From Ophelia neglecta (Eukaryota): a DNA stretch of 64,000 nt. Location of the stretch: contig OZ260661.1 of assembly GCA_965285935.1 (NCBI GenBank), forward strand, positions 87,792,001-87,856,000. The letters run 5' to 3'. Of the stretch, positions 20,401 through 64,000 are shown in pieces (within the stretch, counting starts at the first letter, position 1; each line of letters opens with the position of its first letter). The notes under the pieces were generated by a model, which was not told the origin of the DNA, made no database searches, and was given only the letters and a program-made list of their open reading frames with translations. The position numbers and the translations under genes were made by a program.

Positions 20401-20758
20401 TCATTAAATGGCAAAAAATGTATTATTGTTATTTCGGTGGTTCTAGATTACATCAGATAGCCATACTATAGATTCGGTTTAAACGTTAGTTTGAAAATGT
20501 ACAAGCCTTTCAGTTTACACTTCGGCCGTGAAACTAGATGATTGGTGAAAGGGGTACATAAAGTGAAAATGTTAAGGACAAGTGTATGACATTCACCAGA
20601 GCATTAAGATTGAAGATTTATGTTTTGATGAAACCTTGTCATCTACAAACAATCATTTCCCAGAATTTTGTGTTTTATAAAGATCAGTTTTTTCCTCATT
20701 ATTGTTTCTTGTAAGGAGGTACTTAAATGTTGAGCTTAAATGTTTTTTTCTTTTGCAG

Positions 20759-23700
20759 GAATATATGAAAAAGATTTCCAGAGAAGAGATCACACAGAAA
20801 AAGATGGCAGGAACTAAAGGAGAGGAGATGCTGTATAAGCGGGAGAGTAAAATGGGGGTGACCACTTTCACCTTCCAGAGCAGACGGTACATGTTCCCTT
20901 CAGTGATCGTCAAGGGGGATCCAAACACTTCAGAGGGCGACTGTGTCATGCTGGATGTCGGCCTATTCTGTCCCCACTGTAGCCGCGCCGTGTCAGGAAA
21001 ACTATCCAGCACACTCCGCCGGGTCGCCCTGACCAAATCAACCTCCGCCGAAAATATTAATCAGGCCCGGGTGTATGGGGCACCGGGAAACGTGCCACAA
21101 GCCCTGCCCTACGGCAGTCTGGACCGGGCAAGTCTCAAATCCCGGCGACATGGAATGCTCGAGGAGCGAGGTGTGGCATTCTCTGTTGGCCATGGCTCCG
21201 TCCCAGAAATTGCGCTGTCGGAGGAGCATCTGTGTCGCCACGGAGCCATTCCCCGCCCTATCCCTTGCCTGCCTACTCACCAGGAACGCGAGCCAGTGGA
21301 AGGCGAGGTAGATGAGGATATTACACAGCCTGTATCAACGAGAAACACTACTGAAACCCCACAAGCAAGGACAACCAGGATGTCCCCAGTGTATGCTTCT
21401 GGTACAGGTGACGCGAATAGTATGGAGAGAAGAAGTGATTACGATAGTTTAGATTACTCTTCGGTGACACAGAGTTTAGATACGTCTATTCGGAGTGTTA
21501 GGGAGCCATATCGCAAGAACAGCTCCAGTGATTATGAAAGTATGGATACTAGTGTCACCCACACTACACACCAGCATGAGAACAGCAAATCAGGAATACA
21601 TTTTAAAGGCTCAGACAAGCAACGAAATACCAAACACCAAAGTTTGGAAACGCTGGGAAAGTCGCCGGCAAGTCGGCCAGGGCCTTCCAAGAGACATAGT
21701 GATGATGCCACTATATTTGCAGACAATAGACCAAAAATATCGAGGATATCGCCTGATTCCGATACCACTGGTTCATCATTGTCAACTATAAGGCAGGCAG
21801 GACTCATTCCAAGTAGGTTTCGCGATAGCAAGGGTGAAGTGTACATCTCCGACAGTGAACAGATAGATATGGCCGACTCAAGCGAGGAAGCTCTCATCGA
21901 GGAACTCCTTCACGATGAAGAAATCACTGACAATGATAGTGTTGGGCGTGATATTCTAGATGGTTTATCATCTGGAGACGAATTAGAAAATTACGAACAG
22001 GAGATTGACAAAATGCAGAAAGTGATATCTGCCAGCTTGGAAAAAGTCGCCAAGCAGTCGTCTGAAGATTTTCAGTTTGACGAATACTTAGCCTACGTTC
22101 CACAAAAGGCCAGACCTAAGAGTCAAGAAAGTGTGGATTTGTACACAAAAGAAGTGACCGCCATTTTAGAAGGAATGGGTGGCGAAAATGATGCCAATGA
22201 TGATAGCGATGAAAGAAAACGGAGCATAAGTCCAGATGAAATGGTGGAAACTATTCTTGATAACTTGGACACTGAGTTGTACAGTGGAGATGTAACTCTT
22301 AACCGCATATTTTCGGTGAGAAGAGATTTTGATGGGTCAGTTTTTAAAGAAACACCTCGAAGACCAAAGTATAAGGCCAAAAAGCGTCCTATAATAACTG
22401 AAGACATTGACGAGGAGGCTCTGTTCGCAAATACTCAACCCACTGAACTAAAGGAGTTACGTATGACTCAAACAGTGGAGACTTCAACTGTGTCCACCCA
22501 GGAAATGGAACCTAAATATGAGAACATTACTAAAGATTCAGAAGTAGATTACATTAGTAAGTTAGACATCACACAAGCAAGTGTTTTCGCCCAAAGTCCA
22601 ACGAATGGAACTGCATCAGCAAAAGAGAGAGAATGGAGTCCAGAGGACTTTTTCGAACAAGCAGTAGAATCCATCCCAATTGATTCCGAAGAGGGTCTTA
22701 CTGATTGGACATCAGATTATGAAACTGATAACAATGAACAGTTTGACAGGGACAAAATAAAAACAGACTTTAACATAAAGAGTGAAAGTGATCAAGATGA
22801 ATCGAGACCAGAAGTAGTATCTGGTTATCCTCAGGAATATTTGGGGGTTCGACACAACCAAAGCCGCACATCCTCATGTGAGGCTATTTTAAATGATTGC
22901 GGTCATGAAACGGAGAGTTCTTTGGGGGCTTCTTACCATGATACAGGTTCAGAACACTCTGGGTCCATGGACTATTTGAGCAGCTCAGAATGTTCGGTCG
23001 GTGAAAATAACATAAGCGCCATTGAACATGATGCGGACTTTCGTCAGATAATCTCTGAAACTATGAATATGACAGAAAGTTTAAAATCTTTCCAAGACAG
23101 AAAGGAAAAGCCTCATAGCGCTGGTAAAAAACAATCTCCTTCAAATTCAGAACAAAAAGATGCCATTCTAGTCCACTCAGAAGATGAAGAACACCTCCGA
23201 CAAGAGATCCGAATGCACTTAATCGAGCAACGGCTTGAAGGCGGAGAAAGAACTATCCTACACGTGCCACTTGAAAAAGAGTACCATTCCCATAACACCA
23301 GTGAAACACCCACTACGCGAAATACAAACCCTGCACAACAGGAGGTATTTAGTAGTTCTAGTAGACAGGAAGCAGTGTGTCCTGCACGATCTCCATTGGT
23401 ACAGAAACCGCCGATGTTTGCACGAATCAACAAAATCCCACTGGTCTCAAATGCAGCGGAGGATGTCCCGGAAGAGCAATGCAATCGTTCAGCTAGTTCT
23501 TCCGAGCCAGATGCTTCCTATGATGACGTGGATCTTGATCTAGAATTGGAATTTGAGAACAATATGAGACTCTGTGAACAAGATTCCTCGTCGATGGGGC
23601 TGCTAGAATCGGAATCTGATGATATTATTCTACAGGAATTGCTTTCCGTAGACATGTCCGCTGCTCGCACTCGGAAGGAATCCAGTGGCTCACATCAATC

Positions 23701-26700
23701 TGAAATAGATGAATTCGTTCCCGAGACGGACGAAGATCAGCCAGAGGTTATCCAACAAGCATATGAAGCAGCTCAGTTTGTTGCCAAGCTTCTGGAAGGT
23801 GAACAGCTCCACCACCCTTGTGTGTACACCGAAGATGACCCTAATATCAAGCATGGTTTATTGAAAACAGAAGATGAAGAAAGGTCAAGCGACCGGAAAG
23901 ATCAACATATCTGTCATAGCGAGGATGCTAATTGGCACACTTATGTGGGTGACCCGCAAGGAGCTGATTCTGACTTTGAGACACGAGGTTCCCTATCCCG
24001 ACAGCAAGCCCAAGAGTTCATGCGTATAATGATGGCTTCTAACCAGTCTAAGAGAGAAAATAATAAACCACAGAAAGATAAGGCAGAGGAGAGTAAGGCA
24101 TGTGCAGTAAAAGCGGACGAAGGCATTATAGTCAAGTCAGAGGAAATCACAACCCAGGAGTGTACAATTGTTCTCATGTGGCCGAAGAAGAAAAACAAAA
24201 ATATTATAAAAAAAGACAACAATCCATTTCGTGAAGTACATTTGCACCGTGTTACGAAAGTAAACGACCTTGATATTGAAGTCATTGAAGGTCCAACTAT
24301 CGACAGTGTTGAATATAATGTATCGGAACAGGCTGTAGACAAAAGGCAAAACATGGATAGAATTTCAAAAGAGATGTCACTGGTCAAATCTGTGGTAGCC
24401 AAAGAAATTCCGATGGTGTACAAAACAGATTCTAACGACGGACGCCATAGCGTACGAAGCGCACAAAAAGCCGAGCAATCTACCATAGAGACTCCTACTG
24501 GAAATGTTATTTCTGTCAACAGGTCGGACAAATTTACTCATATCTTAACAACATATGATACAGTTGGCTCGGAGCCAGATATAAGCCCGGAAGCTTCAGA
24601 GGTACACGACTTAAAAGCCGATGACGAAGATGTTGTCCAATCTACGCCTGCACTAGAAAAGGAGAACGAAAGACAAGGGGAGTGGCCGCTATCTTCAAAA
24701 GCTGCCATATCGTCTGAAGAAGGTGAGCTTACAGAATCCGTTTCTATGGTATCCTCCGTTGCTTGCTGTAGTGTAGAAGACCAGATAGACGGCGCTTCGA
24801 ACCCTGAACAAGATATTGGAGAAAGTAACCTGACCAGTGAGAATGTATTCGAAGAGAGTAATGATGTAGAAGTTGATGACCTTAGTGATACTGCTCTGTA
24901 CAGCATTGTCCGAGATCTAAAGGCTCTAATAAATAGCCAAAGTGACGAGGTCGATCCCTTCGAGGGGTACACGCCAAAGGGGCAGGCAATTCCCACTACT
25001 ACGGTCGACACTAATACGGCAAGACAATCTGTAACAACCGTAAGTCAGACAGCCATTGACGTTTTGCCACTTGATGAAGAACGAATGAAAGAAGACAAAG
25101 AAGAAACTCCTGTCTTAGAGGTAGATTCCTCTGCATCTGGTTTTACAACTGTCGATCACACATCAAATGTTAAAGAAACTGGTGCCCCCTCTGATTCAAT
25201 TGACGCTGTACACATGGACTCGGCGGTGGAATGCTATGACAATATTGTCAACGCAGGCCGGGCGAGAGATGTACAAGGGCCTAATGTCCTGCAGGATATA
25301 AAAAATAGCCACAATAGATCTACACACACGTCAGAAGCTGCCTATATGTTGTTTGACGCAAATGCGAAAAAAGGCGCCCAGACCATTCCAGATGTATCAA
25401 TGGACAATGTGCCAAATCCGACCTATGCTGATGAAACAAGGTTGGCAATCCACCAACCCCTTGAACAAATCGTGGGGCATTGCAACAATGAATCGAGTAC
25501 TGTGAACAGTATTGAATCAATTGCTTTGAAAGAGGTCCAAACATCTGAAGTTTCCAACCCCGAAACATCATTTGAACATAACGTAGTGACCGATTCTGTG
25601 ACTGATAATATTCGAAAATACCCTATGCCCGAAATATCGAAAATAAACCTTATTACTGGCTACAATGAAGAGTTCCATCCGTCCCAAACAAATGAGTCTG
25701 ATGTGGCTATATATTCTGATGATTATGAATATTCTTCTATGGAGGCCATGGTAGAAGAGTACGAGACAACGGAAAGTGAAGACGAAACCGTGGAAGAAAC
25801 TGTAGCCAGTGTGTTGTACGATGTGGTCACGACTATTGTTGAATTTCAAAAACATACCCAAGAAACTTCGGCATCTTTGTGCGAGGACAACAATATCAGT
25901 TGTGAGCAAAACGACGACAGTCGAAGGGAAGAAACCGTGACGAAAGACACAAATGCATTAGTTCGAGAAAATGTTGCCCCTGTGATTCCGAGCAATAAAA
26001 ACTTATCAGACACATGCCCAAATCCACAAACTGGTTATTTGCCGGACGGCCAAGATTTAGCAGGCGTAGAATTAAGATCAGTCTCCGAACAAGTGGAATT
26101 ATTAGTGGAGAGAACAAAACGCTGCAAATTCCGTGAACCAGACCCTTCCCATCGTTTTGGATCTCCATTACCAAAAGACGGAAGTAGCCGAAAATATTCT
26201 GTAGATGAACAACAACAATCGGACATCAGTGCCGAGGAGACGAAAGTTATGGGCAGTGAAAACGAAATGACTCAACTTACTAAAGAAATAAGGGAGAAAA
26301 TCAAATGTCTTCTCAGTTCCGAGCTCGAAATTGATGACGAATACTCTATGAAAAAAGTTGAGCTGGTCGATGCTGCCACAGAAACACTTTCCCGCCGAGA
26401 TTCCTCGTCCCCGTCAAGGAAAGAAACTAAGACGACCGAAGTCGAGGCAGATCGAGCCTTCTTGATGGGTTTGACAAGAGACTCCTCCCCTCGAGGGATT
26501 ACTCGACTCGACGAAATCCGTATTGACACGACGTTGCGGCCAGATGTAAAAGAAACAGACCCATTTCTCAGCCCTGTATATGTCCCCGGTGTGAAGGACC
26601 ACTCTGCTTTTATAGAAAAGCAGTTGCAGTCTCCAACAAGCGACATGTTTTCTGAAGAGTACGACAACGATATCAGCCAGTTAGAACGAGTAGAATGGAG

Positions 26701-29700
26701 TGAAATAGATGCCTCAAATCCTGCAGTAGATGACGTTACATCAGGGATCGATGAACAGCAAAGAAGCGACTGGGTTGTCAAGGTTTCCAGTTCAGCCCCA
26801 GCAAAAAACCAGAACACAATTTACCAGACGAATAGCAACCATGTTGGGCTTTCGTCTACAATTGCAACTACAACAACGGAAACATCGAAGACTGTATTCT
26901 CTTCAAGGAGAGTAGAAACCCATTTACCAGTGGACATGGCCCCGATAGGTAGCTACAAAACGCACAGCGGTGGGTTTCAGAGTGGAACATCCGAATCGTC
27001 CAGGGCTGGGACAGTCAGTCCAAATACCCAAGAAAGATCCATATACGAAGTTGACGTTCGGAAATATTTTGGCTTGCCAAATTCCCAGCCATCTCCTCCA
27101 AACTATAGTATCAACAACAGATCCAAGTCCCACGAGGAGATAAGGAATAACATAAACGAGCAATATCTCACGAGCAGTCAGGAAAGGCTTTCAGTCGACA
27201 CAGGACCCCTGGTAAGTTGTCACTCGACCTCCTCTCTATCCACCCGATCTAAACACCTTCGACTACCCAAAATACGGGATTTGTTGATAGAAGAGCTTTC
27301 AAAAGACGATGTTGAGGAAAGCAGATTCAAATCTGAGGATTTCACTGACGACGTCTTACTCGGGTGGCTTGTAAATGATAAATGCCTGAGTCTTGAGGAG
27401 GAAATCATGAAACGCTTAAAAGAATTGTTACAACTTGCAGATAAGTTTTACAGAGAGGGTACAATACCTAAAAAGGACAAATGCGCTGCCTACGAACGGT
27501 TAGCTTCAAAGTCCCAACCAAACCTTATTGATCTCGATATGTGGTCTCTCGAGCACAAAGTAGAAAGCCTAGCAGTTAACAAATTAATGAACGAAAGTTC
27601 TAGCTCAGAGAGGAGTTCAAAGTCGCTGTCCCCGGAAATGAAACACTATGTAAATAACATGGCGCAGTCAATTATGCAAAAAGTAATGGCCAGTGTAAAA
27701 ACGACTTTAGAGGAAGAAACGAGTCGTAAACATGAGGACGAAAGTTGTGCCGAGAGAGAAAGTGAACAGCACATGATGGGTGCTCCTGGGAGTCAGGAAA
27801 TAACCGAAGAACTGGCAAAAAAAGAACCAAATAAGTCTTTCAGTGATACGCATACTGTAGAAAAATCCATTGAAAGAACGTCTCTTTTTATTCAAATTGA
27901 ATCTTCAGAGGATTTGACGAAAGAATGTTCTCTCCCGCCTCTTCCATCACCACCACCACCTCTAAACCCAAAGCAGATCAAACCAGTGAATAAAACGGCT
28001 GAGGCTAAAACAAAGTTAGATGTCTCATTAGAGGCCCAAGCCAAAGCAGGTGGACTGAAACAAGATATCGGGAAGGAAACTGAAGCAGAGAGAGATTTAA
28101 CCATAGAGTCAAATCAGGCCTTAGAATATTCAAATAATTGCATTGATATCGAGCAAGCTAATAACGTCGAAACTGGGGATTCTGACAGCCCAGATGAAGG
28201 TGAAGTAACTTTAGACCTACAAGAGGAAATTGAAACATTCTCGTTGTTTACGAAAATGGAATTAAAGGAGAATTATGCCCCACCGGCATTGGAAACCATT
28301 GAAGAATGCGACGAGGATCATCTTAGTTCAGAGGCGACCAGTGCCCAGTCATCGATAAAGGGTAGTAAAGACGATATACCTAGTGCTCTCAGGGAGAACA
28401 GCTTTAGGTACGAAGTGCATAACCGCAGCATTACAGAGAGTCTTGTGGAGGAGGCGGAGGATGAAAACAGCCTCATGGCCGTTGAAAAGCTGAACTATAG
28501 GGAATTTGATAAAATCACGTTTGGAAAAACGCAAACTTTTAAAAATAATTGCAATGAAAGAGATGATATTATTGTTGTTTCGGAGATGGGTGGCAGTGGT
28601 AGCACCCCAAACATTTTCGAACAGTGTGAAATTTTGTCTGACATACCAATAACGACACATATTGCCTCTAAAAGTACATTGAGCCCACATGACGGCCAAG
28701 ACATTCGACCGGCGATTGGTGCCGTTGCGGTAGCTTCACTTATGGAAGAATCTCAAAAAGAAAGTATCATGACAGCTAAAATATTTGAGAGCCAACCTCA
28801 TTGCATCTCAAGCATACAACAGACAGTGGAAAATGTTCATGAAGGTGTAACGCCTGAACACAGTAATATCAAAGGACAAACGGTTCACGACGAGCATCCC
28901 GGTGACAGATCATCGTCAGAAGAACCGCCCACGTTCTTCGTCAGTCTAGCTGTTTTAACGCTTATGGACGACATGTTAGATAAACTCGAAGAGAATGAGA
29001 TGAAATCAGAAGAAGACTTCCCTTGTGAAATTGTTTCTTTAAATGACACTTCTGTTACTTCATCGGAACGCATTGGAGACACAACGGTCACTTCTGAGGA
29101 AGGCGAGGATGTCCTCAATATTGGGATCACATCGATTATAAATGAAATTTTGGAAGCAGCAGTCGCTTACTCAGAAGCGCATAAAGATGATTCGTCCCTC
29201 AAATCTGGTATCTCTGATATAGCTAAAATAGAAGTAAACTCATTCGGACTACCAATCAGTAGAGTGGAAAGGGTGAAAAATGCAGACGATGCTGAAAATG
29301 CACTTGATGTTGAGCGTATAAAGATAGAAAAGCTAGCTGCAGATATAGTTGCCCGAGTTGTACATGATTCGATATATGTTGTATCTATGAACTCAAATGA
29401 GCAATTAGACAAACCCCAGTCTGCTAACGACTGCGCTTCAGCTAACATTAGTACATCGGGCTCCGTTATGGAAGTTTCAGAGATTATGGTTCCAATAAAC
29501 ATCGTGATAACAGATGATAGTGGCAACACACATATTCATGAACACTATGCTTCACCTGTGTTAAACAGCAGAAATTCCCAAAGCAGCGACTCATTGAGCA
29601 AAGAAAAATATGGCATACAATGCAACAGTAAGAGTAGGTCTTGCGAAGATATGCAATACGAAGATGAACAGTTCATAAGCCTCCGCGATAGATGCAAAAA

Positions 29701-40800: not shown

Positions 40801-43800
40801 ATTTCCCTTCGTAGCAGAGTACACAGCTCCGTTCTCTTCTCCTGGTGATGCGGAGAAGCTATGCGATAAGCACAAGCCTCTGCTGCGAAGGGTAACCAAT
40901 CATTGAATTTCGATTTTTTTCCCATTCTGATAATGTCGAATCAATATAAAAATCATCCGACAACCGTGAAGGTCAGGCACAAAATCTTTGCTACTAATGA
41001 AAAAATCGTCATTGACAATGAATTTATGCCATTGCCAATAAAAAAAATATTGAATGCTGAAATATAGGTTGACAGTCAAACCCGGACAAGTGGGACCACA
41101 TCTAAAATACAGATTATGTATATTATTAGTGGGGGACTAAGATATCTTTATCACAGAATACCATATAAATTTAAAAATAATAATTATTTTCAAATGCTTA
41201 TCATGGTTTGTTCTTAGGTTATGTAACTCACCACATTTTAATTCGTTGCCATGCTTAACAGTCTTGTATCCTTCCTCGCAATAACATCTTTTCGTGCCAG
41301 TGTTGGTGCCATCATCTTTGCACACAGAATGCTTTGCCAGACACACAGACACGTCTTTTTTACAACCGTCACCAAGCTGTGCTCGATACACTGAAACGTT
41401 AAAGTCAACATCAATGCCGGTATATGTCTAAAAAAACGTTCAAGTCTGCAATCGTTTGTTTATATAGAAAAGCAATCGGCACCCAACATGTAAGCCCCCC
41501 CCCCCCTCCTCCCCTCCTCCCCCTCCCACAACCGTCAATTCGACTAACTATATATTCTCCTATAGGTCTACTGGTGACAAAGTAATTGAGCCAGTGTCAT
41601 TTATTAGATTTATTTATTCATTTATTTATTAAAATTCCTTAGACTGCATAGCCCTAGGGTACCAGTTAGTTAGTCCAAATGATGCATGAGAGGAAAATGT
41701 ATAGATACCCAAACTCATTAGTTTGATACAAGAATTAGTACGATATGTACAAATGTAAAAAAAAATCCTTACTATACATAAGAAAATACGTTTTCACATC
41801 TATGCAAATCCAGTTACTTAATGCGTGTTGTTTGATTAATTTTAAAGAAAGTAATTTGACTGTCAGTGTATTAATAACATATATACGAAAGAAATAGAAA
41901 TGAAGATTTACATAGAAGAATGAAAAATAGATAGATATAAGTTGGTTCTATTGTGAATGTATACTGTTTTAACCGTGTAATTTTATATTTTTTAGTTTAA
42001 TGTCTGTGCATTCGTCGTTAGTTAGATAATCTAGATTGCAATCGTTACATAGTTTTTTGTAAAAAAAATTGTGAACGATGAAATATGGGTATAAAAATAA
42101 AGAAATATTTAAAAAAAAAAAGGGTTAGTTAGACCTTAAGATGCGCTAGCTACCTAGGCGAGGTATCTGGTAGACTCCTGCTTGTTGGTAAAATGATGTA
42201 CAAATGTATTCTAATATGAGATTTCCAGGTATATTACCTTTTTTTGCAGCCTCTGGAGAACCATCAACATTTAGATCTCAACCTACTTCAGCTTGAACGC
42301 TCTTGCCATAATTATATTGACAATGTGCGCAGCCTATTTTGTTTTCGGTTTTGCGATTTCGGTCTCCAATTAAAGATCAAGGGATGATGAGTCTGCGGGG
42401 GCAGGGCGGGCAGCACAAAGAAGGGGTGAGGAGTAAAGCCATTAAAATATGTAAAAATGGGGAGGGTGGGGTGTGTTTTGGGGGGCTATGAAGAAGGACC
42501 CACGTTGGTTCAAAGAGAACATTAGAAGTGTTGGCCTTACAATAGAAGGGGGACAAAGTGCGGCTGTACAGGAGTTAGGGTAGAAGCGATGTAAGGTGAT
42601 GTTGAGGTTTGCGGTATACTGATGTAGGGGAGTTAAAGAGATATGGGTCGTGTCTGGGGGGGGGGGGGGGGGTTGTCGGAGGATAGAGGCTGTTGGGGGG
42701 CGAAGGATATAGATCAAGAACTTACACCAGGACTGCCTTTTTGCTTCCAAAGCGTATATCAAGGTAGGCTTATATAATCAAGAAAACAGTGCCTGCCAAT
42801 TATTTTGGGGATCATTGAGAATCGTGAGCCCCTTGGCTATACATACACTAACTGCCATATTCCCTCGGCCGTAGCAGCCGGAGTAATACCCTTGCTGCTG
42901 ATGATTCCCCTGATGATCCCTTTATATGGCAGGCACTATTTGCTTATTATGAGCCAAATAAACCTACAGCAGGACTGTCCTTCCTTGTAGAAGTTCGACT
43001 TGACATCACAGACACATTGAGCCAAACTAGCGTTACACACCGAGCCACGTGTTTTGCTGCTACACTCTCCGTCATGAGTACAGTTTGTCCGGTTATCGAG
43101 TATTTGCGCCGCCACAATATTAGTAGTTGTCGGATTGTTACCGCCTGCTGTGCCATTGTTGCCCGTTGCTCCGGTGCTATTCCCGCCTTTGTCTGTGCCA
43201 TTTATGTTGTTTTCATTGTTGGTAGGCCTACCATTTCCTGGGAAAGAATGAAAACAATTAATATTGAATCAGGGTCTTCATTTTACCAAAGTATGAGTGG
43301 TGCTTAAAGGGATACATAGGCCTATATGTTCAACTTATATCTTGGCGTGACTAGAAGTCGCTTAGCCTCTTTCAGAACCTAGACCTAATATCGGTCGATT
43401 AGTCCACATTTTTAGCTATATATTAAACCAATGTACGGTAAACTTTGTATTTGATCGAAATTACGGACGCACATTATATAGCTGGCGGTTGTGTGTGTGT
43501 TCCGGAGGGGGTGGGGGGGGGGGGGCTAGAAGGTTAAAGAAAATACCTTTGTCGTGTCAAGTTTTTTTTATAATAGAAATGACCAGGTCCTGATTTTACT
43601 TACTGTGGCACAAACAGTCTTTATTTTCAGAAGTGCGTCCCTTGTGCCACGCCCATAGGGCTGCATCGGAAGCATTGTTTTATCCCTATTGGTCCGTTTC
43701 CCATTGCCTTCATCGCCTTTCCCCCTCCCTGCCAAACCCAAGTTGTTATGTAAGGCTTTGTCGCTAAAATCTTAATTCTAATGTGTAACCAAAGCTGCAA

Positions 43801-46800
43801 GCCAAGGTATAAAAGCGAGCGAAAATACAAACCCAAGAAAAACGGAACACATAAAAAGCATTGCTAGGAACAGATTGTAATATAAGTTTCTTAGTAATGT
43901 ACTTAAATATCAAATAAAAAATAACAAAGCGCCCAAGCAACATTTATGGATGACTGTAAATATATTCCCGCGCCTGTCAATGTGGAGGGATACACTGGGA
44001 TATATTGTGTCCTTAATTAAAGTTATAATGGGATATACCTAGTCTGTACATAGGTTATTAACACATCTCTCTCTATATGAGTTTCTAAGCAATGTAGGCC
44101 GAGGCCATATTTTACCTGCGGTTGGCCTACTTGTCGACTCGTTGACGGGAGGACGGGTTGGAGGAGTCAGAGTCTCGCCGCTTTCCGCTGTGGTGTTTGT
44201 GCCGTTGGTGTTATCTTCTGAGGTGCCATTAGTAGTTGAAGAGCTGTTTCCGGTACCGGGCGTATGGTTTCTTCCATCAGCGCCCTCTTGTACTGGTTGT
44301 GTCGTGTTTGGTGTGTCGGTGGGTAAGTGAGTTAAATCTGTGGTTGAATTTGTATTATTCGTCCCGGGTAATTGCATTTCTGTGTTATTGGGCGCGTGCG
44401 TCGAAATGTCAGAAGAGGGCATTGTGTTATTTAAACTACCTGTGCTCCTCGGATTTGACTCGGTAACTTTTACTTCAGTGTCATTGGTTGCTGGAGTTGC
44501 AATACCGGAAGTAGGTCCGGGCGCTTGCGTGGTATAATTAGCGTTACCAGCGGCACCTGGATTAGACTTCGTTACTTCTGCCTCAGTGTCATTGTTTGCT
44601 TGAGTTGTAATACCGGAAATTGGTCCGGGCGCCTGCGTGGTGTAAGTCGAACTACCTTTGTCGTCTGTTACGGTGGTGTTTGTTGACACATCGGTGGAAT
44701 TCGACATGCCTCCTGTGGCATTAAGAGGCCCGACAGTAGTAGTGTTGGAAAAATCAGATTCGTGTGACTCAGTAGAATTTCCTGTACCATTAAGGCAAGA
44801 TGTGTCATTAACTTCACAGGAAGAACAATTTCCATCAACACAGTTGGGAAGAGGGGAATCAGAAAGAAAGGATTTACAGTTCCCATAAAATTCATCTTGT
44901 GTTCTCTCAGACGAAATGCTGTCCGGCGCTGGGGGCCATGACAGCAGGGGTATGTCAAACCATGGTGGCTTTGGTGGAGGCGGTAATATCAAACAGGGAG
45001 GCCGAGGGAAGCTTTCGCTATCACCTACACACGAAAAGGAGCCGATATACTACATAAATCCTTCTCACCATCGTCGTTCTGATAAGAACATTAATTTTGC
45101 TAATTTAACCAGAAGAGAACTTTATATAGGCCTATTGGTAAATATAAATACAATGTATTATTGTATTGTGGTTAAAATGGTGTAACCGACAACCATCTAA
45201 GGAACTGCGAAATACACATGTATATGAAAATCATATCAAGACAAAATTTAATTTTTGATGAAAAACACGGTTTCTTCATGAAAAACACGGTTTCTTTTGC
45301 TAAATAAAGTTTTTTTTTTGGCTAACTTATATATAAGGACCCTCCAGGATTCCCAAGCGCAGGAAGATAGCACCGCCGCAGAGAACACAAAATGAAATGT
45401 GCTAAGCAAAGGAAAATCACCAAATAAATTGAAGACAAAAGGTATTAATATTTAGCTAAGAAACGTCAGCAGGTAACATAGAAAAGTGCATTTAGGTGAT
45501 TATAGGCTTAGACGTCTATGTATGAGAATGCTTTAGAAATTAAACCAATTAGTTATAAGCAGATCATATATCTAGAATTATAAAATGCAATCAACAAAAA
45601 TGAGTAATGAGTTCTAGAAGGCGATTGGTAGCTGGTAAGAATTTTTATGACCCCGATACCTTTACGGATAATTTGAATAAAAATGCATCTTTGTATATTT
45701 TTCAAGTTTATTTATGTCAATACTAACTGCAGGAGAATAATTCGAAACTACCCTGGAGAAGGCCTAATTGAGCAGGCTCCCTGGAGGTTTATAACGAATT
45801 GTTTAGCTTAATTAAGACCAATTTTATACCAGCCACATAAAGTCTGGAGACTTTCAGAAAAAAAGGTTTCAAATCATACGATGCTAGAAAACAGTGTGCA
45901 CAAGCTACTGCTGACGTACATATTGTCTATGTGTAATTGGTGTGTTTAAAAAAGGCTGCCTCCAATTGGTTTGTTATGTATGACGTTTGACCTATTTGAC
46001 GCGTTTTGCCAGAGCATTGTGTCCTTGGGTGCCACTGCCATCTGGTGGTGACGTCATCGCCGAAAGCAGGCCAAGCTTAATTTGCTGTCAGGGCCAATTA
46101 GCGTTCACCATGTGAGCGTGTCGGACATGCATTGAATACAGATTCAAAGTTTTTTAAGCACCACTAGTCTCCAGACTTTATATTGCTGGCATAAATTATA
46201 GGAGAATCAATTTTTACATAATCCATTGCAAGCGACGTATTCTGCCGTCATTGGTTGAAAGGGCTGTTTAGCGTCAGTAGCCAATGTATGTTGTTTGGCC
46301 GAAGCTCAATAGTGGTAGCGCAGCTAGTGACGTCACACAACATGGTGAGCGTCACTTTTCATGTTGACAAATCAGCGGGCAACGGATTATTACGCTAATT
46401 GCCCTGGTCTACCAATGAAGGCCCGACACGTGACTTGCAATTGTTTATATGAGGACGTCAATTGAAATTTGATTCTCCTACAATTTTAGGTTGGTTGTCA
46501 TATTTCACAATTGACAACAGGCTTTTATACTTTTTTTCTAAGCAGCATCATACTCACAGAATTAACTGATCTACAAAATAGTTGGTGTTATTTAAGTAGG
46601 CATGTGCATAAATTCCACCATAGATATAACCGGGCCCCTTTTTTTACGAATACGCAACTGCCACCATTTTGCCTTCTAATATCCTTCTTAAGGGACTGAC
46701 TATAGCACTATAATAAATCATTATTATTGCAAAAGTCATGTGAGGATTTCAAGGCCGAGGGATCAAGAAATCACCAAGTCCTCCCCGAAACCTAGCAACT

Positions 46801-52878: not shown

Positions 52879-55800
52879 ATGCGGAGCTGTTTCAATTTCT
52901 GTGGTGCACAAATAATTACCATGCTTACCTCACAAACTCTTTTTCTAACGATAATGGTTCTGGGAACAATGGGCGAAAACACAGGTATTTATTATTCACT
53001 AGATAACTTACTGCTTAAAGTGATATGTTGACCTACATTTTGTATGGACTGATTGACTTCTGCGCCATGGTCTCACAGCTGGGTAACTTATATTACCATG
53101 CTATAATTTTCTTCAGATTAAGTGTAACAGTTAATGTAACAAGGTAATTTTTTAAGTGTCTTTCCACATTTCATTTATGATAAACATTATCAGAAGACAG
53201 AGTTTTCCCAGACACTTGTTCGCACACTTCACAATGCGGCCATCTGCATCCATTCGCCGTCTGTCGTCAGGTCAATCTCACTTCCGACTCCGGTACTACT
53301 ATCCTAGAAAGACGTTGTGCCTGTGACCAATCGCAAAGCTTCTTTTTTGAAAATGAAACATGTGGTAAGTTACACCCTTTTTTACCTCAAAAGTCTATTT
53401 ATTTTAGGGATGTATTCTGTTTTTCTAAACAATGCCAACTATAATCTGGAAGTACACTCACCTACTTACAATGGCTGTGACTTTATACCTTTAACTCTCA
53501 AGTCCCTTATAAGTTCATGGGCCAATGCCAAATTGGTAGTTGTCATGGGAATAGACACCCAAAGAGAGAGAAGATATGTGGATTCATATAGCACAGGTAT
53601 TCAGCTATCTGCTGGTACCAAAATATTTTTGTCTTCGGTGGCGTCCATAAAATTGAAGAAATGACCCATGGACTAAATGTTTTATGTCTTATAACAGAAA
53701 AAATAATAATACAGTTGCAATAAGCAGAACTACAGTATTTGGAAGAAGCAATGGACACAACTCTACCGTTAGTTTCCGTCGCTTAATTCTTGGTAGCAGC
53801 TCTCGCGATAAACCTCATATAAATTGTTTAGAATTCAAGTTAAAAACGTGAAAATATTGGCTCTGTTGATTCTTTCCAATTCCCTATGCGAACTAATTCT
53901 TTTTCAATATGTTGAGGTGTTGATTGCATGATTTATTTATTGTTTGTCAAATTTCCTTATCTTAAACAATGTGCTCGAAATAGTATGTAAACTTCCTGTT
54001 CAGGTAATGAGCCCATTTGTGCCTTTTTTTATGCGTTGATTAGCTTTTTTCTTAATAAATGTAAACCACAATTTTGAGATTTGATGAAAGGGTAGTATAT
54101 TGTTTATTTCCTCTTTGAATTTCTTTTTAATCTATTTGTTGTTTTGTTGATATATTCCATGCCAAAATGGATTGCGTAAAATTGTCGCCAAATAATAGTT
54201 TGTATGTGTGTCATATGATGTTATGTTATTTCAAAATAAAATTTGGCTTGCCTTAGTAATGTTGTTGATAGGTTGACTTATTATCGTTGTGCTATGTAGC
54301 TCGATTGTTGTTTTTTTCTTGTTTTTTTTCGTAGTAGTAAAGTTACCTTTTTGAGAACTAACACTATTTATAGATGTGTTGTTTACCCATTCATTCATTG
54401 GACCATTCTTTGATGAATTGTTTGCAGATTTTCCATTTGTGGGATTATTTCTTAAAAAACATGTAAAATTGTATTATTCTTTGCATTGATTGGTTTGTTG
54501 TTTCGTTAACCTAACACCTCGTACAATATCAGAAATAACCAACTGCGTATTGCTGGATTTGTATATACGTTGATTAATTGGTTTATTAATATGTACAGTC
54601 TTGTATGTTACGAAAGCAGAATCGGTAGATTCTAAATGATAAGTAAACTGGTTTATTAGTTAGTATATTCATTTGTTCATTTGTTGAATGATTCATTTTT
54701 GGGCAGGAAATTAGGTGACCTTTGCGTAAAGTAATTAGTAATACACCAAATGAACATTAAACAAATTTAACAATGAGACCTTCTTGCAGTCGATCTTACA
54801 CCAAAAACCCCATCGTTTTGTTATATTTTACAGTAAAGCACGTTAGAGTGTTGCGGCCATGCGAAGCCGGCAGAGGGCGTTGTGTGGATAGATATACTGC
54901 TTGCGTTGATGACGGCTCGGGGATGGGTTATAGTAGATGTATGTGCCAGGCAGGAACAAAACAAGTCAGGGGGGATGACGGATTCCTAGTTTGTGGTACG
55001 TAAGAGATAGAAATAGAGACATTTGAAGAAGAACCATAAAATAAATGTGTAATTTATTTATACGGAGCTCTAATTGAAATATCATATTATTACAATTATT
55101 GTTTTTATAATCATTATCGTTATCATTATATGGGGCTTTATATTTTTGTTTCGTAAATTTCTTAACGGTTAGGTTTTCCAGAGAAAACATACCGCACGGG
55201 GAAAATGCCACAAGAAGGCCTATGTGCTATGTGGTACATGAGTACTATATTAACACTATGTTTATGATATCATGTTATATACTACAAAAGTGTTTCTCTG
55301 TATAGCTCGAATTATTACCGTTCTCGAAGACCCGCTGTGTAGAGCGTGCGAAGAAAATGGCGGCCAATGTTATGACCTAGATGAAGACGGGGTCAAGAAC
55401 GGCTGCATCTGTCCCGCGTCTTTGTCGGGATCTGACTGCCAGCACATACATGGTAAACATCGCGTCCATTAGAAACCGTAGCATGCCAATCACAAGATAT
55501 TTCGCATTAGTTCCATGCAATGTTAGTCCCTTAGAAATATCCTATTTAGATCCAAAGGCAAACACATTTGGAGCATTCCTGTATAATTTTCGAAGTTAGG
55601 GTATCTAACTTAATTAAAAACGTGTGCAAGTCCTATGTAATCACTCTGGTCTTTTCTGAACAGTTAACAGAAAATTCTTTGCACACACAGTCATGGTTCA
55701 CATATTGTAGCTTACTTCATAAAAGTTTTCGTCAGGTTACTATGGAATTAGGAAACAAATACGGAAAGAAAATCTTAAACATGTCAGTTAGGCCTATATA

Positions 55801-58257
55801 TCCATAGGGCAATGTACCAATTATTGGCCTAAAAAGATTTCCCAGGATGCTTCTTTCTTCACAGAACATTGCCAGTACACATTTATTGAATACAATTAAT
55901 ACGATTGATAAAAACGACTTCATCAATAAAGATTTATCGCATTTCCTAAATAGAAATTAGGAATTTTATATGGAAGAATCTGTTACATTTTCTGTCGGAG
56001 AATGCTTATCGCTGTGCAATAACTTCACCTATAGAGATAGGCTTTAGGCCTGCTGGGTAAACGATATGTTCTTGAATTCAGTCCATGTTACATGCGAGAA
56101 GGAGATTATGACGGTGTGTTACGACCCACACCCGGGGTTTAATTTCTCCGACGGGGCCCGTGTGTATGTTGATGGGGCAGGGCACCTCAGCCAGTGCGTG
56201 GGGGTACCGGCGGAGAAGGAGTGCGGCCCAGGCCAGTTAGTACTTCACTTACCACTGGACGAGACTCGTCGTCACACCTGCTCAACGCTCAAACACAGAC
56301 CAGACGTGAGCTACTCTCTTATAATTACATCATATATATATTTATTCTTTCCGTGGGAAACCTTTATCAGTTTGTTGTAGATATAATTGCTTTCATAGAC
56401 AGATATTAACGAACAGCAGCCTAATTGACAAGACACTGTTTTTTAATATAAGCTTTAAGAGAAATATATTGAGTCAGATTGTGGTTTTACTCAACTCTAA
56501 TTTTAAATGTAACTTTCTTTTTAGGACAGATCTATAAGATATGAAAATATGTTACTCGTGAAGAAGGGCGAAGATGCGACGGGAGGCGAAGAAGATATGA
56601 TTTTATTTAATACATATTGTGCTTACAAAACGCAAGCCGAAGGCGGATTTATGGGTCAGAAGGTCTACGGGTAAAACACATATTCTAGCTATCATTCTCT
56701 TACCACGAGCTTTCCTCTAATGTGTTTGTAAAGCCCTATTTGTTATAACACCAAATAGCTGGTTAGTTCCAATTCCTCTTCCAAATATGTTATATCAAAA
56801 CTATAAAGATAACCCAAAACAAAGAAATGCACCGGGTATGTCTGAAATATCTGGTCGATTTGGCCTCATCGGTCAACAAAACACCTAGGTAGGAATGTTT
56901 AATTTCATGAATATGGACTCTCTTGCCAGTGATACAGAGGACAATGTCGGTGAGCGTCGTAATGCCGATGTAACCTTCTCCGTGGAGACTGCCACTGGAG
57001 ACAGTATACCTAAAGGTGTGATGGTCAAGACTGGGGACTCGGTCAAATTCAGACTTTACCTAGATACAGCCAGTAAGTGTTTACTTACAACTCTCACCGC
57101 TAGGACAAAGATTTGCACGGTCGAGGCCAATCAAGTGCACAACTTACGAACAGCTTGAATTACAGTTGTGTTTTGCATGCGCGGCTACCACATCACTCTA
57201 GACCGACAAAATATAGCATGCTCTTACTTATCAAGACGAAATGTAACGCGGTTGACATATTTAATTTCAATACGTAATATGTCGGGCTGGAAAATTGAAC
57301 CTGTCTTCGACGGTCCTCTTCGCGCGTTGATATCTAACAATTTACTCTATAACAGGTGGATATGAAACAGTGAGAGTTGACTCTTGTCTTCTCTCCAACT
57401 TACCAATTACGCACAGAGCCGCCAAGACCTTGTCAGTTGTGGAACAAAGGTAGGCTGTTGGTCATTTTAAATGATGTGTAATTATATATGTTTGAAGATA
57501 CCGAATATAACAGTTCATACTAAAGCATTCAATGCTAATCAGACAGTCCGTTAATTTGACATTGCAGCTGCCCGGCGCTAGGACAATCCTTTTTCGACAT
57601 GATCAACTACTGGCACTTCATTTCCCCAAGAAAGAATGAGATGGAGACGGGACTGGTGCGTGTCCAGCCAATTGGCACAGGGACCATGGTTTACCTCCAA
57701 TGTAACTTAAGAGTGTGTTTGCGAGGTTACGAGGCTCTGTGTGATCCTATCGCCTGTCAGATGGGGAAAATGACAAGGCGGAGCTTGGAGGAAGACCGTT
57801 TGGAGGTCAAGTTACTGCATGTTAGCGTTGGTCTCGCTGTGTGGGAGGGGCGACACGACACAGCAGAAGTCCGAGGTATTTATTGCAACCATTACTAACA
57901 GAAAAACAAATTTGCTCAACATAATGTTTGGCTGACCAATTTACTTGTAAATATTTATTCCTGACAATAACATTGCACATTTGCGGTTCAAGCTTAGGTA
58001 TTATTATGAAATTTGAAATCCATATGCAATAACTATTTTTGTCAGCAGGCGACAAGGTGTCAATTGGACCAGAAGTAGTGATTGGCTTATCAGTAGTATT
58101 TGTGCTGCTCTCAATTAGCGTTGTTGTTGTCATTTATTTTCTGACAAGTACGTCTCGTTTGAGGCGATCGAGAGACGATCGACAGGGATTACACAAGGGT
58201 GACGCTAAGGATTATGGGACTGATGCGGGTCGCCACACATCCCAAACACGGATTTAA
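52879..58257 (+). CDS. EGF-like + ZP domain type I membrane protein, paralog B (~570 aa)
   Basis: 10 phase-consistent exons: 52879-52984 (signal-like TLFLTIMVLGTMG; alternative ATG at 52921), 53194(or 53212)-53364, 54834-54995, 55306-55452 (EGF-like, 147 nt as in paralog A), 56082-56305, 56525-56670, 56930-57072, 57356-57449, 57568-57875 (VYLQCNLRVC; TRRS), 58046(or 58049)-58257 (TM, tail ...SQTRI). Exon-by-exon similarity to paralog A. Probable non-coding first-exon donor at 52649 and acceptor at 52833. Confidence 0.87.
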
Positions 58258-59271: not shown

Positions 59272-62200
59272 TCAATCAGGCGGTGGTAGCTCCACACAGA
59301 TATGGGTGTATAGAGGCGTCTTTCGATGTGACACCAGTTTGTATCGTAGTGTAGGCAGGCCGTCGTCGGTGTACCGGGCGTGGTCAAAGATCTCACCCCA
59401 TCTGAAGCAAAAACGGAACCTAGACTCACATCAAAATGTACAGAGCTAATACGTTAGCTGGCGGTGTATTTAACGTAATGAAGCAAGTCAGTTATATTAA
59501 TAATGTGTATAAAGGGCTTTTCCAAAAGATATATCCTCGGGGGATGGGGGTGTGGTTCGCTTTCTATGTCCGGGGACATGTGAGTGTCATGGATGCCGTG
59601 TTTCCAGAGGAGGGTTGGTGCTGGGACAAAATAAAAGTGTCCAGGGTTCAAAGGCACCATTGTTTTTCAAGCACCAAAAAAAGAACAAAATTAAGGGACA
59701 AAAAAAACTGATACAGCGGCAAATTGCAAATCGTCTAAGGAGCCGTTTTTGACATAATCCTGCATGAATATTAGAACAGAGTATGGGAATATATGCCAAA
59801 TGCTGCTTACAATCACTATTGATTTTAAATAAGTACATTTTTTTAAAAACTGTCCAGAGGAGAGGGGTTAATTGAAATGTATAAAATAGCCTGTGTCCGG
59901 GGGTCGGGGGTTAAATTATAGGGGTTGTATTGGGGGAGGTTCATTAGCGTGTCCGGAGCGGATGGGTCCAAAAATAAAATGCCCCACCCCCTAAGGACAA
60001 TTCTGGAAAAGCCCTAATTGAATAAAACCGATTGATGCTATGTAAAAATTCTATATAAAATAAATTTGATTTGTACATGTCAATTCTTTCGTTCTGTTCC
60101 TTGTGTTCTAGTTGGTAGTAGCCAGACACCTCGGCCGCGTAACGAGAAGGCTGCATGTTGTGAACCCGTAATCTGAAAATGAAGTGGGCTTATATCCATT
60201 CATTCCTATGGTTACCGTCCTTTTATTAACATGTAAACATGTAAAGAAACAAGTAAACAGGGCCTAGAAATGGGCCAGGTGATTCGTTGATCGGCTACAA
60301 GAAGATCAATGGGCTCTGGTTTGCTGTATATATATAAACGTATATATAAACTTGTACCGAGTGTGTTGCATCTTGTCAGAGGACAGCGGCGACATTCATT
60401 GTCACCAAAACGGTTCTATTCATGTCCTTATGCAACAATTACCTACTGTAGATGCCTTTTTTTTGTTCAGTATCACAAATAAAAAAATCGACTGTCAACA
60501 TTCAACTCTCCATATCATCCAATTTGATGCCACTTTTTCCGGCAAAAATATTATTACTAGCTTCAATTATTAACAGTACACATGAAGCTAGCGTAAGCAA
60601 CTATACATTTTCTTTAGAGAATTCATTCTTACTGTAAAAAAGAAAGCGATGCTAGTACACGTTGCAAAAGCATAATTATGCTTTTATCGCTGTCGTTTTC
60701 AACTTGTTGACGTTCGAAAGCCATGGCAAGCCATGTCAGGTATCTAGTGCGACTGCGTGAGCATTTTGTCGGGAGGTACTAAATTCTGCATTGCTAGGTG
60801 AAATTGCGCATTCGTTCATAAATTATGTAGATTTTTTCGTCGAACCGGGTCAAAACAATGCATAAATGAAGACACGTCACTCACAAATCTATGCCAGCAG
60901 ACGACAAATTGATAATACAAAACCAGAGATGTATATAGCCAGAGATTGGAATCGGGCCCTCCTTATACCCTGCGCAAATGGCAATAGGTTACCCGCACAC
61001 GAGCTCACGCTGTACGCGGGATTTTGTGCGCGAACGTTCGAGAGCCACCATTGTGTTCACATAGAGGAAGCCGAGCGAACACCAAACACAAACAGAAATA
61101 AATTGGCGTAGTCGGCGTTTTACACCAACTCAGAAGATAAATGTTCAGTGTGAACTGGTATCAATAAGACTGGTACCACTGTTGTGATTATTTTAACCAA
61201 AATAGGGGGGACTTATATGCAACGTATGTTAAAAGAATGTTTGTTCCCAATGCCCAATGGCTATACAGTATAGGTTTATCTTTTGGGTGTAAAGCAAATA
61301 TCAGGATATAAAATACCGTCTGAGAATTCGAACATGAGTCATTTGATATAGCAAGCAAATATTAAACTGACCTCATCCATATTTCGTCGTCCTCCCCTCC
61401 CCACCCGTAGAATATCGTAGGGAACCCACTTATCCTCTCCACTTGGTCTGGAGACATCATGATAGCACCGCCGAAATAATGCCAATAAGCAACTCTGTAA
61501 TCAAGATGTGAAAACCCAAATAACTACATTACCATTAAAGGATAATCATATTTTATTTTTCCTAAACAAATGTTCATTTAGGCATATAAAAGACCAGCTA
61601 GGGCTACCTGTGAAAGATGTTGTGCTGAACCGCAGCACCGCAGCAGCGCCGCGACACGGACAACATGGTCGGCGAATCAACTCGCTCCATGTTTGGGGTG
61701 CGGGGGGAGTGGGGGAGGTGAGGAGTTGGGTGATAATTCAAGTGCACATATTATCGCTAGTGAAAACTAATTTGATCCAACAATGATGTCTTTTATGACA
61801 GTCCATGTAATTTTACCATGACTTATGACCTGATAGTTACCAATAGATACTATAGCATATAAACTGGCACTTAATTTTAAACTTGAGGGGAGTTCCCTGA
61901 TCTTACCTATACCTGTAGCTATTCCTAGCCACAGTAAGCAGTCGAGGCTGTGTACTGCAATAATAAAGATTACACATGTCCTCGGGGACTAGATCCACGT
62001 CATGGAAGGCAAAACAGTCAAAATGTTCCCGAGCCACCATCTCCAGATATCCCACATTGAGCAGCGCCGCCCTGTTGAAAGGATGGCTGTCCGCCTGCTC
62101 AACTATCACAATAACATAGTCTAAATACTGCTTCTGGAGAAATCGGTGGATGTTGCTGAGGAACCTGCTCAGGTGATCCTCCCTGTCTCTATATGGAATG

Positions 62201-63462
62201 ACAAGGGCGATTTTAAAACGCGGACGACAATCAGGCGGTCTCCACCGACCACCCGCCTCCACAGTGGGCAACATGTGTAATAAAGTTTCCATGGAAACAG
62301 TCCCTTTCTTGTTCAAGACTGGGAACTCTCTACCTATAAATAAGAAGTATATTTCATACCTCCCAGACAACATTTTAACAAAACATAATCAAACTTTACA
62401 CTAGTAGGCCTACCATATTATTTGGCTTATTCGGACTTAATGATTGTTTTCAAAATAAAAGGCTATGGTAATAAAATCAATTCATGTTTCTACCAAATGT
62501 GTACGATGATTGCCAGACAGAAGCCTCCGTGCTTTTCGGCCAGACCATGCACCTGGTCATTCCTCGTCTGCCGGGGGTGAAGACAAACGCCCACGTGTCT
62601 AGGGGACTCAGTTCTCTCAGTAACACGTGCTTCAGGTCGCTCCCTATGCAGAACCGCGTTACCACTTGTAGGAAATCGGAGATATTTCCAGTTGTGGCGC
62701 CAACAATCACATCTCCTTTGCCCATGCCGCTGCTAGAGTAGACTTGAGCCTTTTTGGTGTCGGTGAAGAAGATGACCTCTTTTGGACGACATGAACGCCT
62801 AAGACGGACCAAGTGGACAGATCCCGGGCTGGCAGATGTCCAGTTGTGGACAAGTTGACCGTTGATGACGATGAAGCCGTATCGGCTGCTCGAGTTGACC
62901 GGAAACCCTCGGATTGAGAAATGGCACACTGAAAAGAGTTCAGAAATTGTTTGTTTAGCGGTTACAGTAATTGCCTCATTTTCCTCAAAATACCTAATAC
63001 ACTAAGGTAATTGTGATAGCATCTAGTCTGATATCTGAAATACATATTTATGCAATATGACTACTATACAAGCTCGAAAAGATTATGTTTTAATGCCATA
63101 CACATTTTTATTATTAAATTCATGCTATGTCAATTCGGTGTAGATCTAATTTGGGTTACTCTTATTCACCACTATTTATTACCCTTTTCCTCGCATGGCA
63201 GAGGGCATGCTTCCACGCCGGAGTAGTGGTAGTTGTACTCTGCTGTGTGGTACTTGTGGTGAAGCGTGCGTGAGAGGAGTAGCTGGGACTGGTTATAGGG
63301 CGGGGGGTTCCATCCCTCGGGACCAAAAACACCGCTGTCCCTGCCCTCTCGTCGTAACGCCGACCGAATGACAAAGTCCCATCCCAACAAGATGACAATG
63401 ATGCTTGCTGCTACTTTAACAAAATCCCACAACGTTTTAAGTCGCAGCCTTTTATTCTTCAT
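59272..63462 (-). CDS. B4GALT: Glycosyltransferase family 7 (beta-1,4-galactosyltransferase / beta-1,4-GalNAc-transferase-like), type II Golgi membrane protein with an extra stem domain (~496 aa)
   Basis: 6 phase-consistent exons: 63462-63183 (basic N-terminus + TM), 62928-62494 (extra domain), 62333-61907 (GGRWRPPDC, IALVIPYRDR, FNRAALLNVG, FHDVDLVP), 61494-61372 (YFGG, GWGGEDDE), 60172-60077, 59401-59272 (DGLPTLRY...PLYTHICV, TGA). All hallmark GT7 motifs are present. Confidence 0.93.
59512..60016. mobile_element. MITE-like element in the last intron of the GT7 gene
   Basis: Inverted termini AGGGCTTTTCCAAAAG..TCCTCGGGGGATGGGG (59513-) and CCCCACCCCCTAAGGACAATTCTGGAAAAGCCCT (-60015); no ORF. 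Confidence 0.68.
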
Positions 63463-64000
63463 TCTCTTGTCCACAATGTCGGTGTATCAACAACATCCAT
63501 CATAAAGGCGATCTTGAAAATAACAGAATAAATTCGATTCTTGAGTGCATTCCTTTTTTCATAGGTGATATGAATTACAAGGATAAACTTTTGTCAAATA
63601 GCTCGTGCCTCTCTATCTTAGTATTTTATGGGGAAAGGTGTTCAAATATATAGGCCTATAGGGAGGAAAAAGACCCTTCGGTTAAATACTTCGTTAACAG
63701 TGGTAAAACTAATTGTCTATATGTTCATCAGGAGCTACTGAGGTTATGGTAAAACAAGAGGGACACGCAATTCAGTTTTTCCTAATTTTATCCCGTGAAG
63801 ATGTGAATTTAAGGCCACGAATACAGTTGGTGACTATTTTTTCAATTACAGTTGTCAACGCCCTTCATGGGCATGTCATCTATAATTATTTTCATTCCTG
63901 AGCCACCTCAAGGCTGGCAGCATTCAGTTATAATTAAAATCAGCCGGGAGGCATGCAATTGTTTAACGTCGCTGACAATCTCCAGTCAGAGCCATAGGTA

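Follow-up and report, generated by a model that had tools for sequence, protein, structure and literature searches.

A giant single-exon protein of Ophelia neglecta with AKAP-like helices as a candidate scaffold for protein kinase A

A 64,000-nucleotide stretch of the Ophelia neglecta genome (assembly GCA_965285935.1, contig OZ260661.1, positions 87,792,001 to 87,856,000 of the forward strand; hereafter the window) carries the gene of a giant protein, which an initial annotation had proposed as a multivalent anchor of protein kinase A (PKA). Our analysis leans towards a new scaffold resembling the A-kinase anchoring proteins (AKAPs), in which one or two of five similar amphipathic helices would be real binding sites for the dimerization/docking (D/D) domain of the PKA regulatory (R) subunits. 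Judged by its pattern, the fourth of the helices listed in that annotation (helix 4) is the best AKAP candidate. The features of the gene and its product are collected in Table 1.

The gene belongs to a family that is undescribed, with 3,000-3,800 amino acids (aa), one coding exon, no recognized domain and no name. The stop-to-stop open reading frame (ORF) P0001 (20681-31774, plus strand, frame 2) has 3,697 codons. Translation probably starts at Met42 (20804), where the alignment gives a MAG/MAA...YKRES-type N-terminus common to four relatives. A comparable splice acceptor lies 7 nucleotides (nt) upstream of the ATG and in another phase in the relative L055, against 45 nt in the window gene. 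Because the relatives share the start while distance and phase of the acceptor differ, the upstream exon is presumably non-coding, and the whole protein of 3,656 aa would come from one exon. Among the variants listed, which derive from DNA contigs of three runs of one study, the two indels inside the ORF preserve the frame, while none of the eight outside it is a multiple of 3; 15 of the 31 substitutions inside the ORF are synonymous. No Pfam family passed its cut-off in the full protein or in 13 relatives. An orthologue, P0002 (3,802 aa), shows 50% identity in the first 1,400 residues and 45% over the full length. With residues 71-1270 as the query, phmmer returned 13 proteins at E values up to 0.001 from 1.84 billion representative sequences, and further searches added one more (P0018). 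Metagenome scans gave one locus, near-identical to P0003, and one scan was without any relative. Paralvinella palmiformis KAK2146416, an annelid protein, is the sole member with a named organism among the ten relatives looked up, and the family is likely to be confined to annelids. The protein is a giant without a name, in agreement with the initial annotation. In titles and abstract openings, among the matches listed, the AKAP literature on annelids, invertebrates and multi-PKA anchoring held no account of this family; neither did passages of PMC12203939, PMC11276731, PMC7926881 and PMC4963476, and the THAHIT literature held nothing related.

The four peptides of the initial annotation are genuine; they lie in frame 2 of the ORF and start at 25802, 27647, 29126 and 29324. 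All of them are wide-faced, i.e., they belong to helices with the pattern hh..hh..hh, hydrophobic pairs at places 1-2, 5-6 and 9-10. A fifth helix of this kind, at 28937, had been missed. Between residues 1700 and 2900, bounds that were picked after the sites had been seen, there are five wide-face sites where 1.08 are expected (p = 0.003); the other 2,455 residues are free of them. P0002 has four such sites (0.88 expected, p = 0.014) in the same order and none elsewhere, its helix 2 failing the pattern by one Thr. The N-terminal half holds many conserved narrow amphipathic helices, with wide-faced ones absent. In AKAPs, the anchoring face comprises places 2, 5, 6, 9, 10, 13, 14 and 17, and anchors of type I R subunits (RI) have Phe or Tyr followed by Ala at places 1-2 (Falcone 2025, PMC12083921). 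Helices 2, 4 and the fifth show this face in full, helices 1 and 3 at seven of the eight places. The claim of hydrophobic islands in acidic disorder is also borne out: the protein is acidic and Ser-rich (S 13%, E 10.7%, D 7.9%), and AlphaFold2 predicted, with low confidence, all four peptides as helices within an unfolded chain (residues 1703-2902; predicted local distance difference test, pLDDT, under 50).

The expectation that the helices would be conserved islands in the orthologue was examined by comparing identity to P0002 over 14 residues with that of 40-residue flanks. By this measure helices 1, 2 and the fifth stand out from their flanks, while helices 3 and 4 are at flank level. For helix 3, P0002 has a helix of the same pattern at the matching rank (2935-2951) with identity at background; for helix 4, the counterpart at P0002 3036 shares 5 of 18 residues. 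In these alignments, helices 3 and 4 keep pattern and rank rather than residues.

A tighter AKAP-type pattern, hA..hh..hh..[AS], occurs in all six proteins whose sequence includes the C-terminal half (among them P0007, which is without its N-terminus), at 0.59-0.80 of their length, where 0.04-0.13 sites are expected in each. The window protein (helix 4), P0002, P0003, P0006 and P0007 have one site each and P0011 has two; among shorter proteins it occurs in one of four (P0004). These counts cover 10 of the 18 proteins, leaving out five fragments of the N-terminal half (P0009, P0010, P0012-P0014) and three cluster-mates (P0015-P0017). For five proteins (P0002, as close kin, being excluded) the joint p is about 1e-6 with local shuffles and 1e-5 with shuffles that preserve the order of hydrophobic residues (pattern-keeping shuffles). 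The tighter pattern does not bear out the earlier count of at least four sites, since helix 4 is its only match in the window protein, and distant relatives hold one to two such helices each. Among four giant ankyrin ORFs of the same genome, 17,210 aa in all, it matched once; this match, at residue 40, falls in the pyrimidine-rich and seemingly intronic lead-in of a stop-to-stop frame.

The helices of the relatives start with FA, LA, IA, CA or VA. FA opens the helix in three of the six proteins (P0003, P0006 and P0007), and a further YA helix is common to P0007 and the fragment P0004. The Type I (RI-selective) start is thus present in P0003, P0006, P0007 and P0004; no helix with Phe or Tyr followed by Ala at places 1-2 was found in the window protein, P0002 or P0011, helix 4 starting with LA and helix 2 with YV. 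FA and YA starts are tied to the flanking helices of RI (PMC12083921). Relative to a conserved helix that serves as a family landmark (the anchor helix in Table 1), the FA helix follows at +107 in P0003 and +240 in P0006, and in the window protein helix 2 follows at +88 and helix 4 at +650. Helix 2 is the first wide-faced helix after the landmark, which is the position of the FA-start helices in P0003 and P0006, and its best match, although non-significant (p = 0.31), is to the FA helix of P0006.

Possible partners are encoded in the same genome (762 Mb), which has D/D domains of type II R subunits (RII) twice, of RI, and of a protein that we take from its sequence to be SPA17-like. The first RII D/D domain matches human RII-alpha chains at E = 1.6e-11; it lies on C1 near 55.76 Mb, the RI domain on C8 near 46.28 Mb and the SPA17-like one on C7 near 40.53 Mb. 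The second RII gene is intronless (C8:43907777-43910869; L033:1465-2574, plus strand), with a 370-codon frame encoding an RIIa and two cNMP domains; it is possibly a retrogene, in addition to the intron-bearing RII gene on C1.

If the protein is an AKAP-like scaffold, it would act as a long flexible tether. To tether PKA, helix 4 would dock by folding into the groove of an R-subunit D/D dimer, as helix 2 probably would too, while conserved N-terminal blocks, as a candidate targeting element, would set its cellular place. The C-terminal helices may dimerize the protein, and its RRWS and RVxF motifs would allow feedback by phosphorylation. Binding as such, PKA rather than another D/D protein as the partner, targeting, dimerization and feedback are all steps that we infer. 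Three or more working sites appear doubtful, and four or more are unproven.

Several observations weigh against an anchoring role. Four helices without the wide face or AKAP likeness, at residues 402, 1027, 1402 and 1865, surpass the AKAP-like ones in identity to P0002 (0.86-0.93), so conserved islands are widespread in this protein and no mark of AKAP-like helices, and the identity of helix 4 to P0002 is no higher than that of its flanks. The tighter pattern was written after the sequences of the relatives had been seen; when Ala at place 2 alone is required, the joint p becomes 0.004-0.007 with local shuffles or 0.037 with pattern-keeping ones, and without this requirement it is 0.4-0.66. 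The ankyrin exons are a lenient control, being poor in amphipathic helices (1 consensus site against 17 expected). Two-sequence profiles of helices 1-4 gave no significant alignment of the distant sites with helix 4 or 2 (p 0.1-0.96), although a control helix did align in three of seven relatives; the distant sites are thus no more than putative counterparts of a window helix. Pfam families of PKA anchors matched none of ten helix fragments at E values up to 10. Searched with a profile of the six helices, a PDB library without chains shorter than 20 residues yielded no AKAP peptide; its weak matches included a Sac3 helix (E = 0.75). Likewise, a PDB sequence search with helix 4 alone found no AKAP chain. 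A genome search with AKAP_110 gave no match anywhere, controls included, and is hence uninformative.

The permissive consensus [AVLISE]xx[AVLIF][AVLI]xx[AVLI][AVLIF]xx[AVLISE], taken as quoted in the initial annotation, is weak evidence for an AKAP. As stated there, three of the four peptides fit it, namely helices 1, 3 and 4; helix 2 fails, with Met at hydrophobic places. Overlapping matches number 12 in the protein, where shuffling gives about 2.5 and none of 2,000 shuffles reaches 12, and there are seven separate proline-free sites against 2.0 expected. Matches absent from the earlier list lie at residues 402, 1027, 1231 and 1402, with a proline-containing one at 2675. Since shuffling destroys helix periodicity, this excess shows that there are many amphipathic helices and not that they are of the AKAP type. 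A further point against anchoring is that the four distant long relatives show no excess of consensus sites, with 2, 3, 2 and 1 against 1.75, 1.37, 1.0 and 1.21 expected.

How far do other explanations account for the same helices? They might be generic helices that fold on binding to other partners, or that pack against each other, with an AKAP likeness arising from broad amphipathicity alone. The protein has at least ten conserved amphipathic islands, several of them more conserved than helices 3 and 4, the loose patterns are near chance, and the profile of helix 4 is closer to the Sac3 helix than to any AKAP chain; helices of the Sac3 type are wrapped by other partners. However, place 2 holds Ala and place 13 a small residue in six of six relatives, three of them with an FA start, despite flanks that cannot be aligned. 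In both close orthologues, moreover, all wide-faced helices fall within a single region, and we regard this explanation as somewhat unlikely. Pure chance, with a permissive consensus matching a functionless long open frame, seems highly improbable. About 2-2.5 consensus matches are indeed expected at this protein length, but the frame is kept in an orthologue of 45-50% identity and in distant relatives, the listed indels inside it are in frame, and conservation above the flanks marks helices 1, 2 and the fifth. For the gene and for these three helices, the sequence comparisons largely refute this reading.

It is also conceivable, if quite improbable in our view, that the helices bind a D/D fold of a protein other than the kinase (SPA17, ropporin-like or DPY30), which would give the giant protein an architectural role, in cilia or sperm for example, instead of one in PKA anchoring. 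The SPA17-like D/D gene in the genome would suit such a role, and AKAP28 binds R subunits and ROPN1L, SPA17 and CABYR alike (PMC12083921). Against it stand the FA and YA starts in four relatives, given their link to the flanking helices of RI (PMC12083921), and the PKA-consensus site RRWS, which is kept in four of six proteins. Taken together, the AKAP-type or D/D-binding role proposed initially stands at the level of pattern for helix 4 and, less directly, for helix 2, and does not extend to all helices. An AKAP-like scaffold with one or two working sites remains the reading that we prefer.

Table 1. Features of the giant gene and its product in the window. Identity to P0002 is over 14 residues, with that of the 40-residue flanks after the slash.
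Feature	Position	Strand	Identity to P0002 / flanks	Remarks
Splice acceptor AG	20757-20758	+		Preceded by pyrimidine tract; exon begins 20759, 45 nt 5' of the likely ATG
Coding sequence	20804-31774	+		Single coding exon, 3,656 aa; starts at Met42 of stop-to-stop ORF P0001
N-terminal family block with CxxC (CPHC)	20804-21010	+		From alignment; candidate targeting or metal site
Best-conserved block TQE.T..WPK...P.RE.H..RV	24128-24310	+		From family alignment; one match in genome
Helix 1	25799-25852	+	0.64 / 0.34	Wide-faced; 7/8 face places hydrophobic
Family anchor helix (CLSLEEE...)	27383-27448	+		Residue 2235; not AKAP-like; positional landmark; aligns in distant relatives
Helix 2	27647-27700	+	0.71 / 0.35	Hydrophobic at 8/8 face and 0/6 off-face places; aromatic first residue
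Fifth helix	28937-28990	+	0.79 / 0.36	Wide-faced; not in the initial annotation
Helix 3	29123-29176	+	0.36 / 0.34	Wide-faced; 7/8 face places
Helix 4	29324-29374	+	0.29 / 0.22	Only window helix fitting hA..hh..hh..[AS]
C-terminal long amphipathic helices	30932-31141	+		Putative coiled coil, judged by eye; flank RRWS
RRWS PKA-consensus site	31040-31051	+		In 4/6 proteins checked (P0001, P0002, P0006, P0011)
RVxF-type (PP1-docking-like) motif RRVQF	31244-31258	+		Same position in P0002 only (2/6)
Candidate 3' untranslated region	31902-33268	+		AATAAA at 31902, 32908 and 33263; from sequence only

Outside the wide-faced helices, the family has several conserved elements. In profile alignments, the anchor helix is the best site in three of seven relatives at p < 0.005. 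RVxF motifs dock protein phosphatase 1 (PP1). Scans of the family for SxIP and 14-3-3 motifs found nothing common beyond P0002, and an ESM Atlas search with the two conserved blocks gave no usable match. AlphaFold2 predicted no fold for residues 42-1241, only isolated helices in an unfolded chain (mean pLDDT 42, from a poor alignment of 14 rows), and in this prediction the TQE.T block did not join the N-terminal CxxC block in one domain. The CPHC-like CxxC is kept in all relatives that have an N-terminus. A second, VCQTC-like CxxC lies just N-terminal of the TQE.T block in most of these relatives (near their residues 870-1000), the window protein and P0002 being without it. The two CxxC motifs could possibly share a zinc site across ~1,000 residues, to which AlphaFold gave no support. 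The motifs SPEDFFE and DWTSDYE (window 22640-22730, residues ~654-684) are near-universal in the relatives amid flanks that cannot be aligned, and are candidate phospho-regulated docking motifs.

Two other origins of the frame were rejected. A giant ankyrin exon is not at issue, as no ZU5 match lies within 1 Mb of the window and the nearest is 1.2 Mb off on the other strand, and the frame is not the last exon of the upstream peroxidase gene, which has its own stop ~8 kb before the window. The giant ankyrin frames themselves (C8:41590095-41648923, minus strand; L036-L042) lie 3' of a ZU5 exon and have 2,268, 5,017, 6,363 and 3,562 codons; this set is unusually large, at ~17,000 aa and 52 kb of coding sequence plus one 413-codon frame. 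The peroxidase gene, of the animal haem type (C1:87773400-87784100; L010-L011), has an N-terminal exon that reads like a chitin-binding domain (CBM14-type). Further upstream of the window are a mitofilin-like gene (minus strand, 32-41 kb) and, on C1, two NK-class homeobox genes in divergent arrangement (at ~61 kb and at 116-125 kb; L016, L021-L022), which from their motifs we presume to be NK6 and NK7. Within the window, a 20-nt unit and variants of it are repeated in tandem over 1-720. Downstream of the giant gene follow an EGF/mucin-like membrane-protein gene (34800-45050, minus), exons reading like a ZP-domain gene (53200-57900, plus; a Pfam match in neither of the two exons tested) and a glycosyltransferase family 7 gene (61900-63500, minus; PF13733).

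AKAPs are hardly findable by homology, and an RI-binding anchor of nematodes is reportedly known from older work. A far-reaching version of the AKAP reading, which we think unlikely, is that annelids evolved, separately from vertebrates, a single-exon giant AKAP that holds three to five PKA holoenzymes on a disordered arm of 1,200 residues, with RI-type FA helices in some lineages, RII-type helices in others, and PP1 and PKA-substrate sites adjacent. If true, such a lineage-specific multi-site giant anchor would be a convergent invention of multi-site PKA scaffolds. It would also offer a natural series for studying isoform switching, and the FA, LA, IA, CA and VA starts among the relatives make rules of RI/RII selectivity testable. 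Dual-helix and RI-selective AKAPs have been dated to the base of the vertebrates (Falcone 2025, PMC12083921). Given this dating and the annelid membership of the family, its FA helices would be an independent case, and multi-site and RI-type anchoring would extend well beyond the vertebrate origin proposed there (PMC12083921).

Comparison with known systems places the protein among large scaffolds of several kinds. The giant ankyrin exons of the same genome are likewise very long, acidic, disordered open frames. However, a giant ankyrin needs ankyrin repeats, ZU5, UPA and a death domain, whereas the window gene begins and ends in its one coding exon, and the ankyrin exons are without its wide-faced helices. 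With AKAP11, SPHKAP, AKAP3 and AKAP4 there is no sequence link, Pfam AKAP_110 (PF05716) being unmatched in P0001 (E up to 1) and in 13 relatives (E up to 0.05). In myospryn (CMYA5), one giant exon reportedly encodes a long acidic stretch with several anchoring helices. Myospryn differs in its C-terminal TRIM-like domains, while the window protein has no Pfam domain and one coding exon. Myospryn is a protein of 449 kDa (~450) that binds RII-alpha (PMC3797997). The RII-type anchor AKAP-Lbc (Ht31) and helix 4 share the spacing of hydrophobic pairs and the Ala at place 2; this likeness is one of pattern only, with no PDB or Pfam match, and the window protein has no guanine nucleotide exchange factor or other catalytic domain. 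The vertebrate dual-helix AKAPs AKAP220/AKAP11 and SKIP/SPHKAP are largely disordered. They are likewise large, with more than one anchoring helix, some of them with an FA start (PMC12083921), and have two helices against five candidates in the window protein. Multi-site AKAPs are thus already known (AKAP220, SKIP; PMC12083921), and next to them the window protein is a genuine giant scaffold without a name and a credible candidate for an AKAP.

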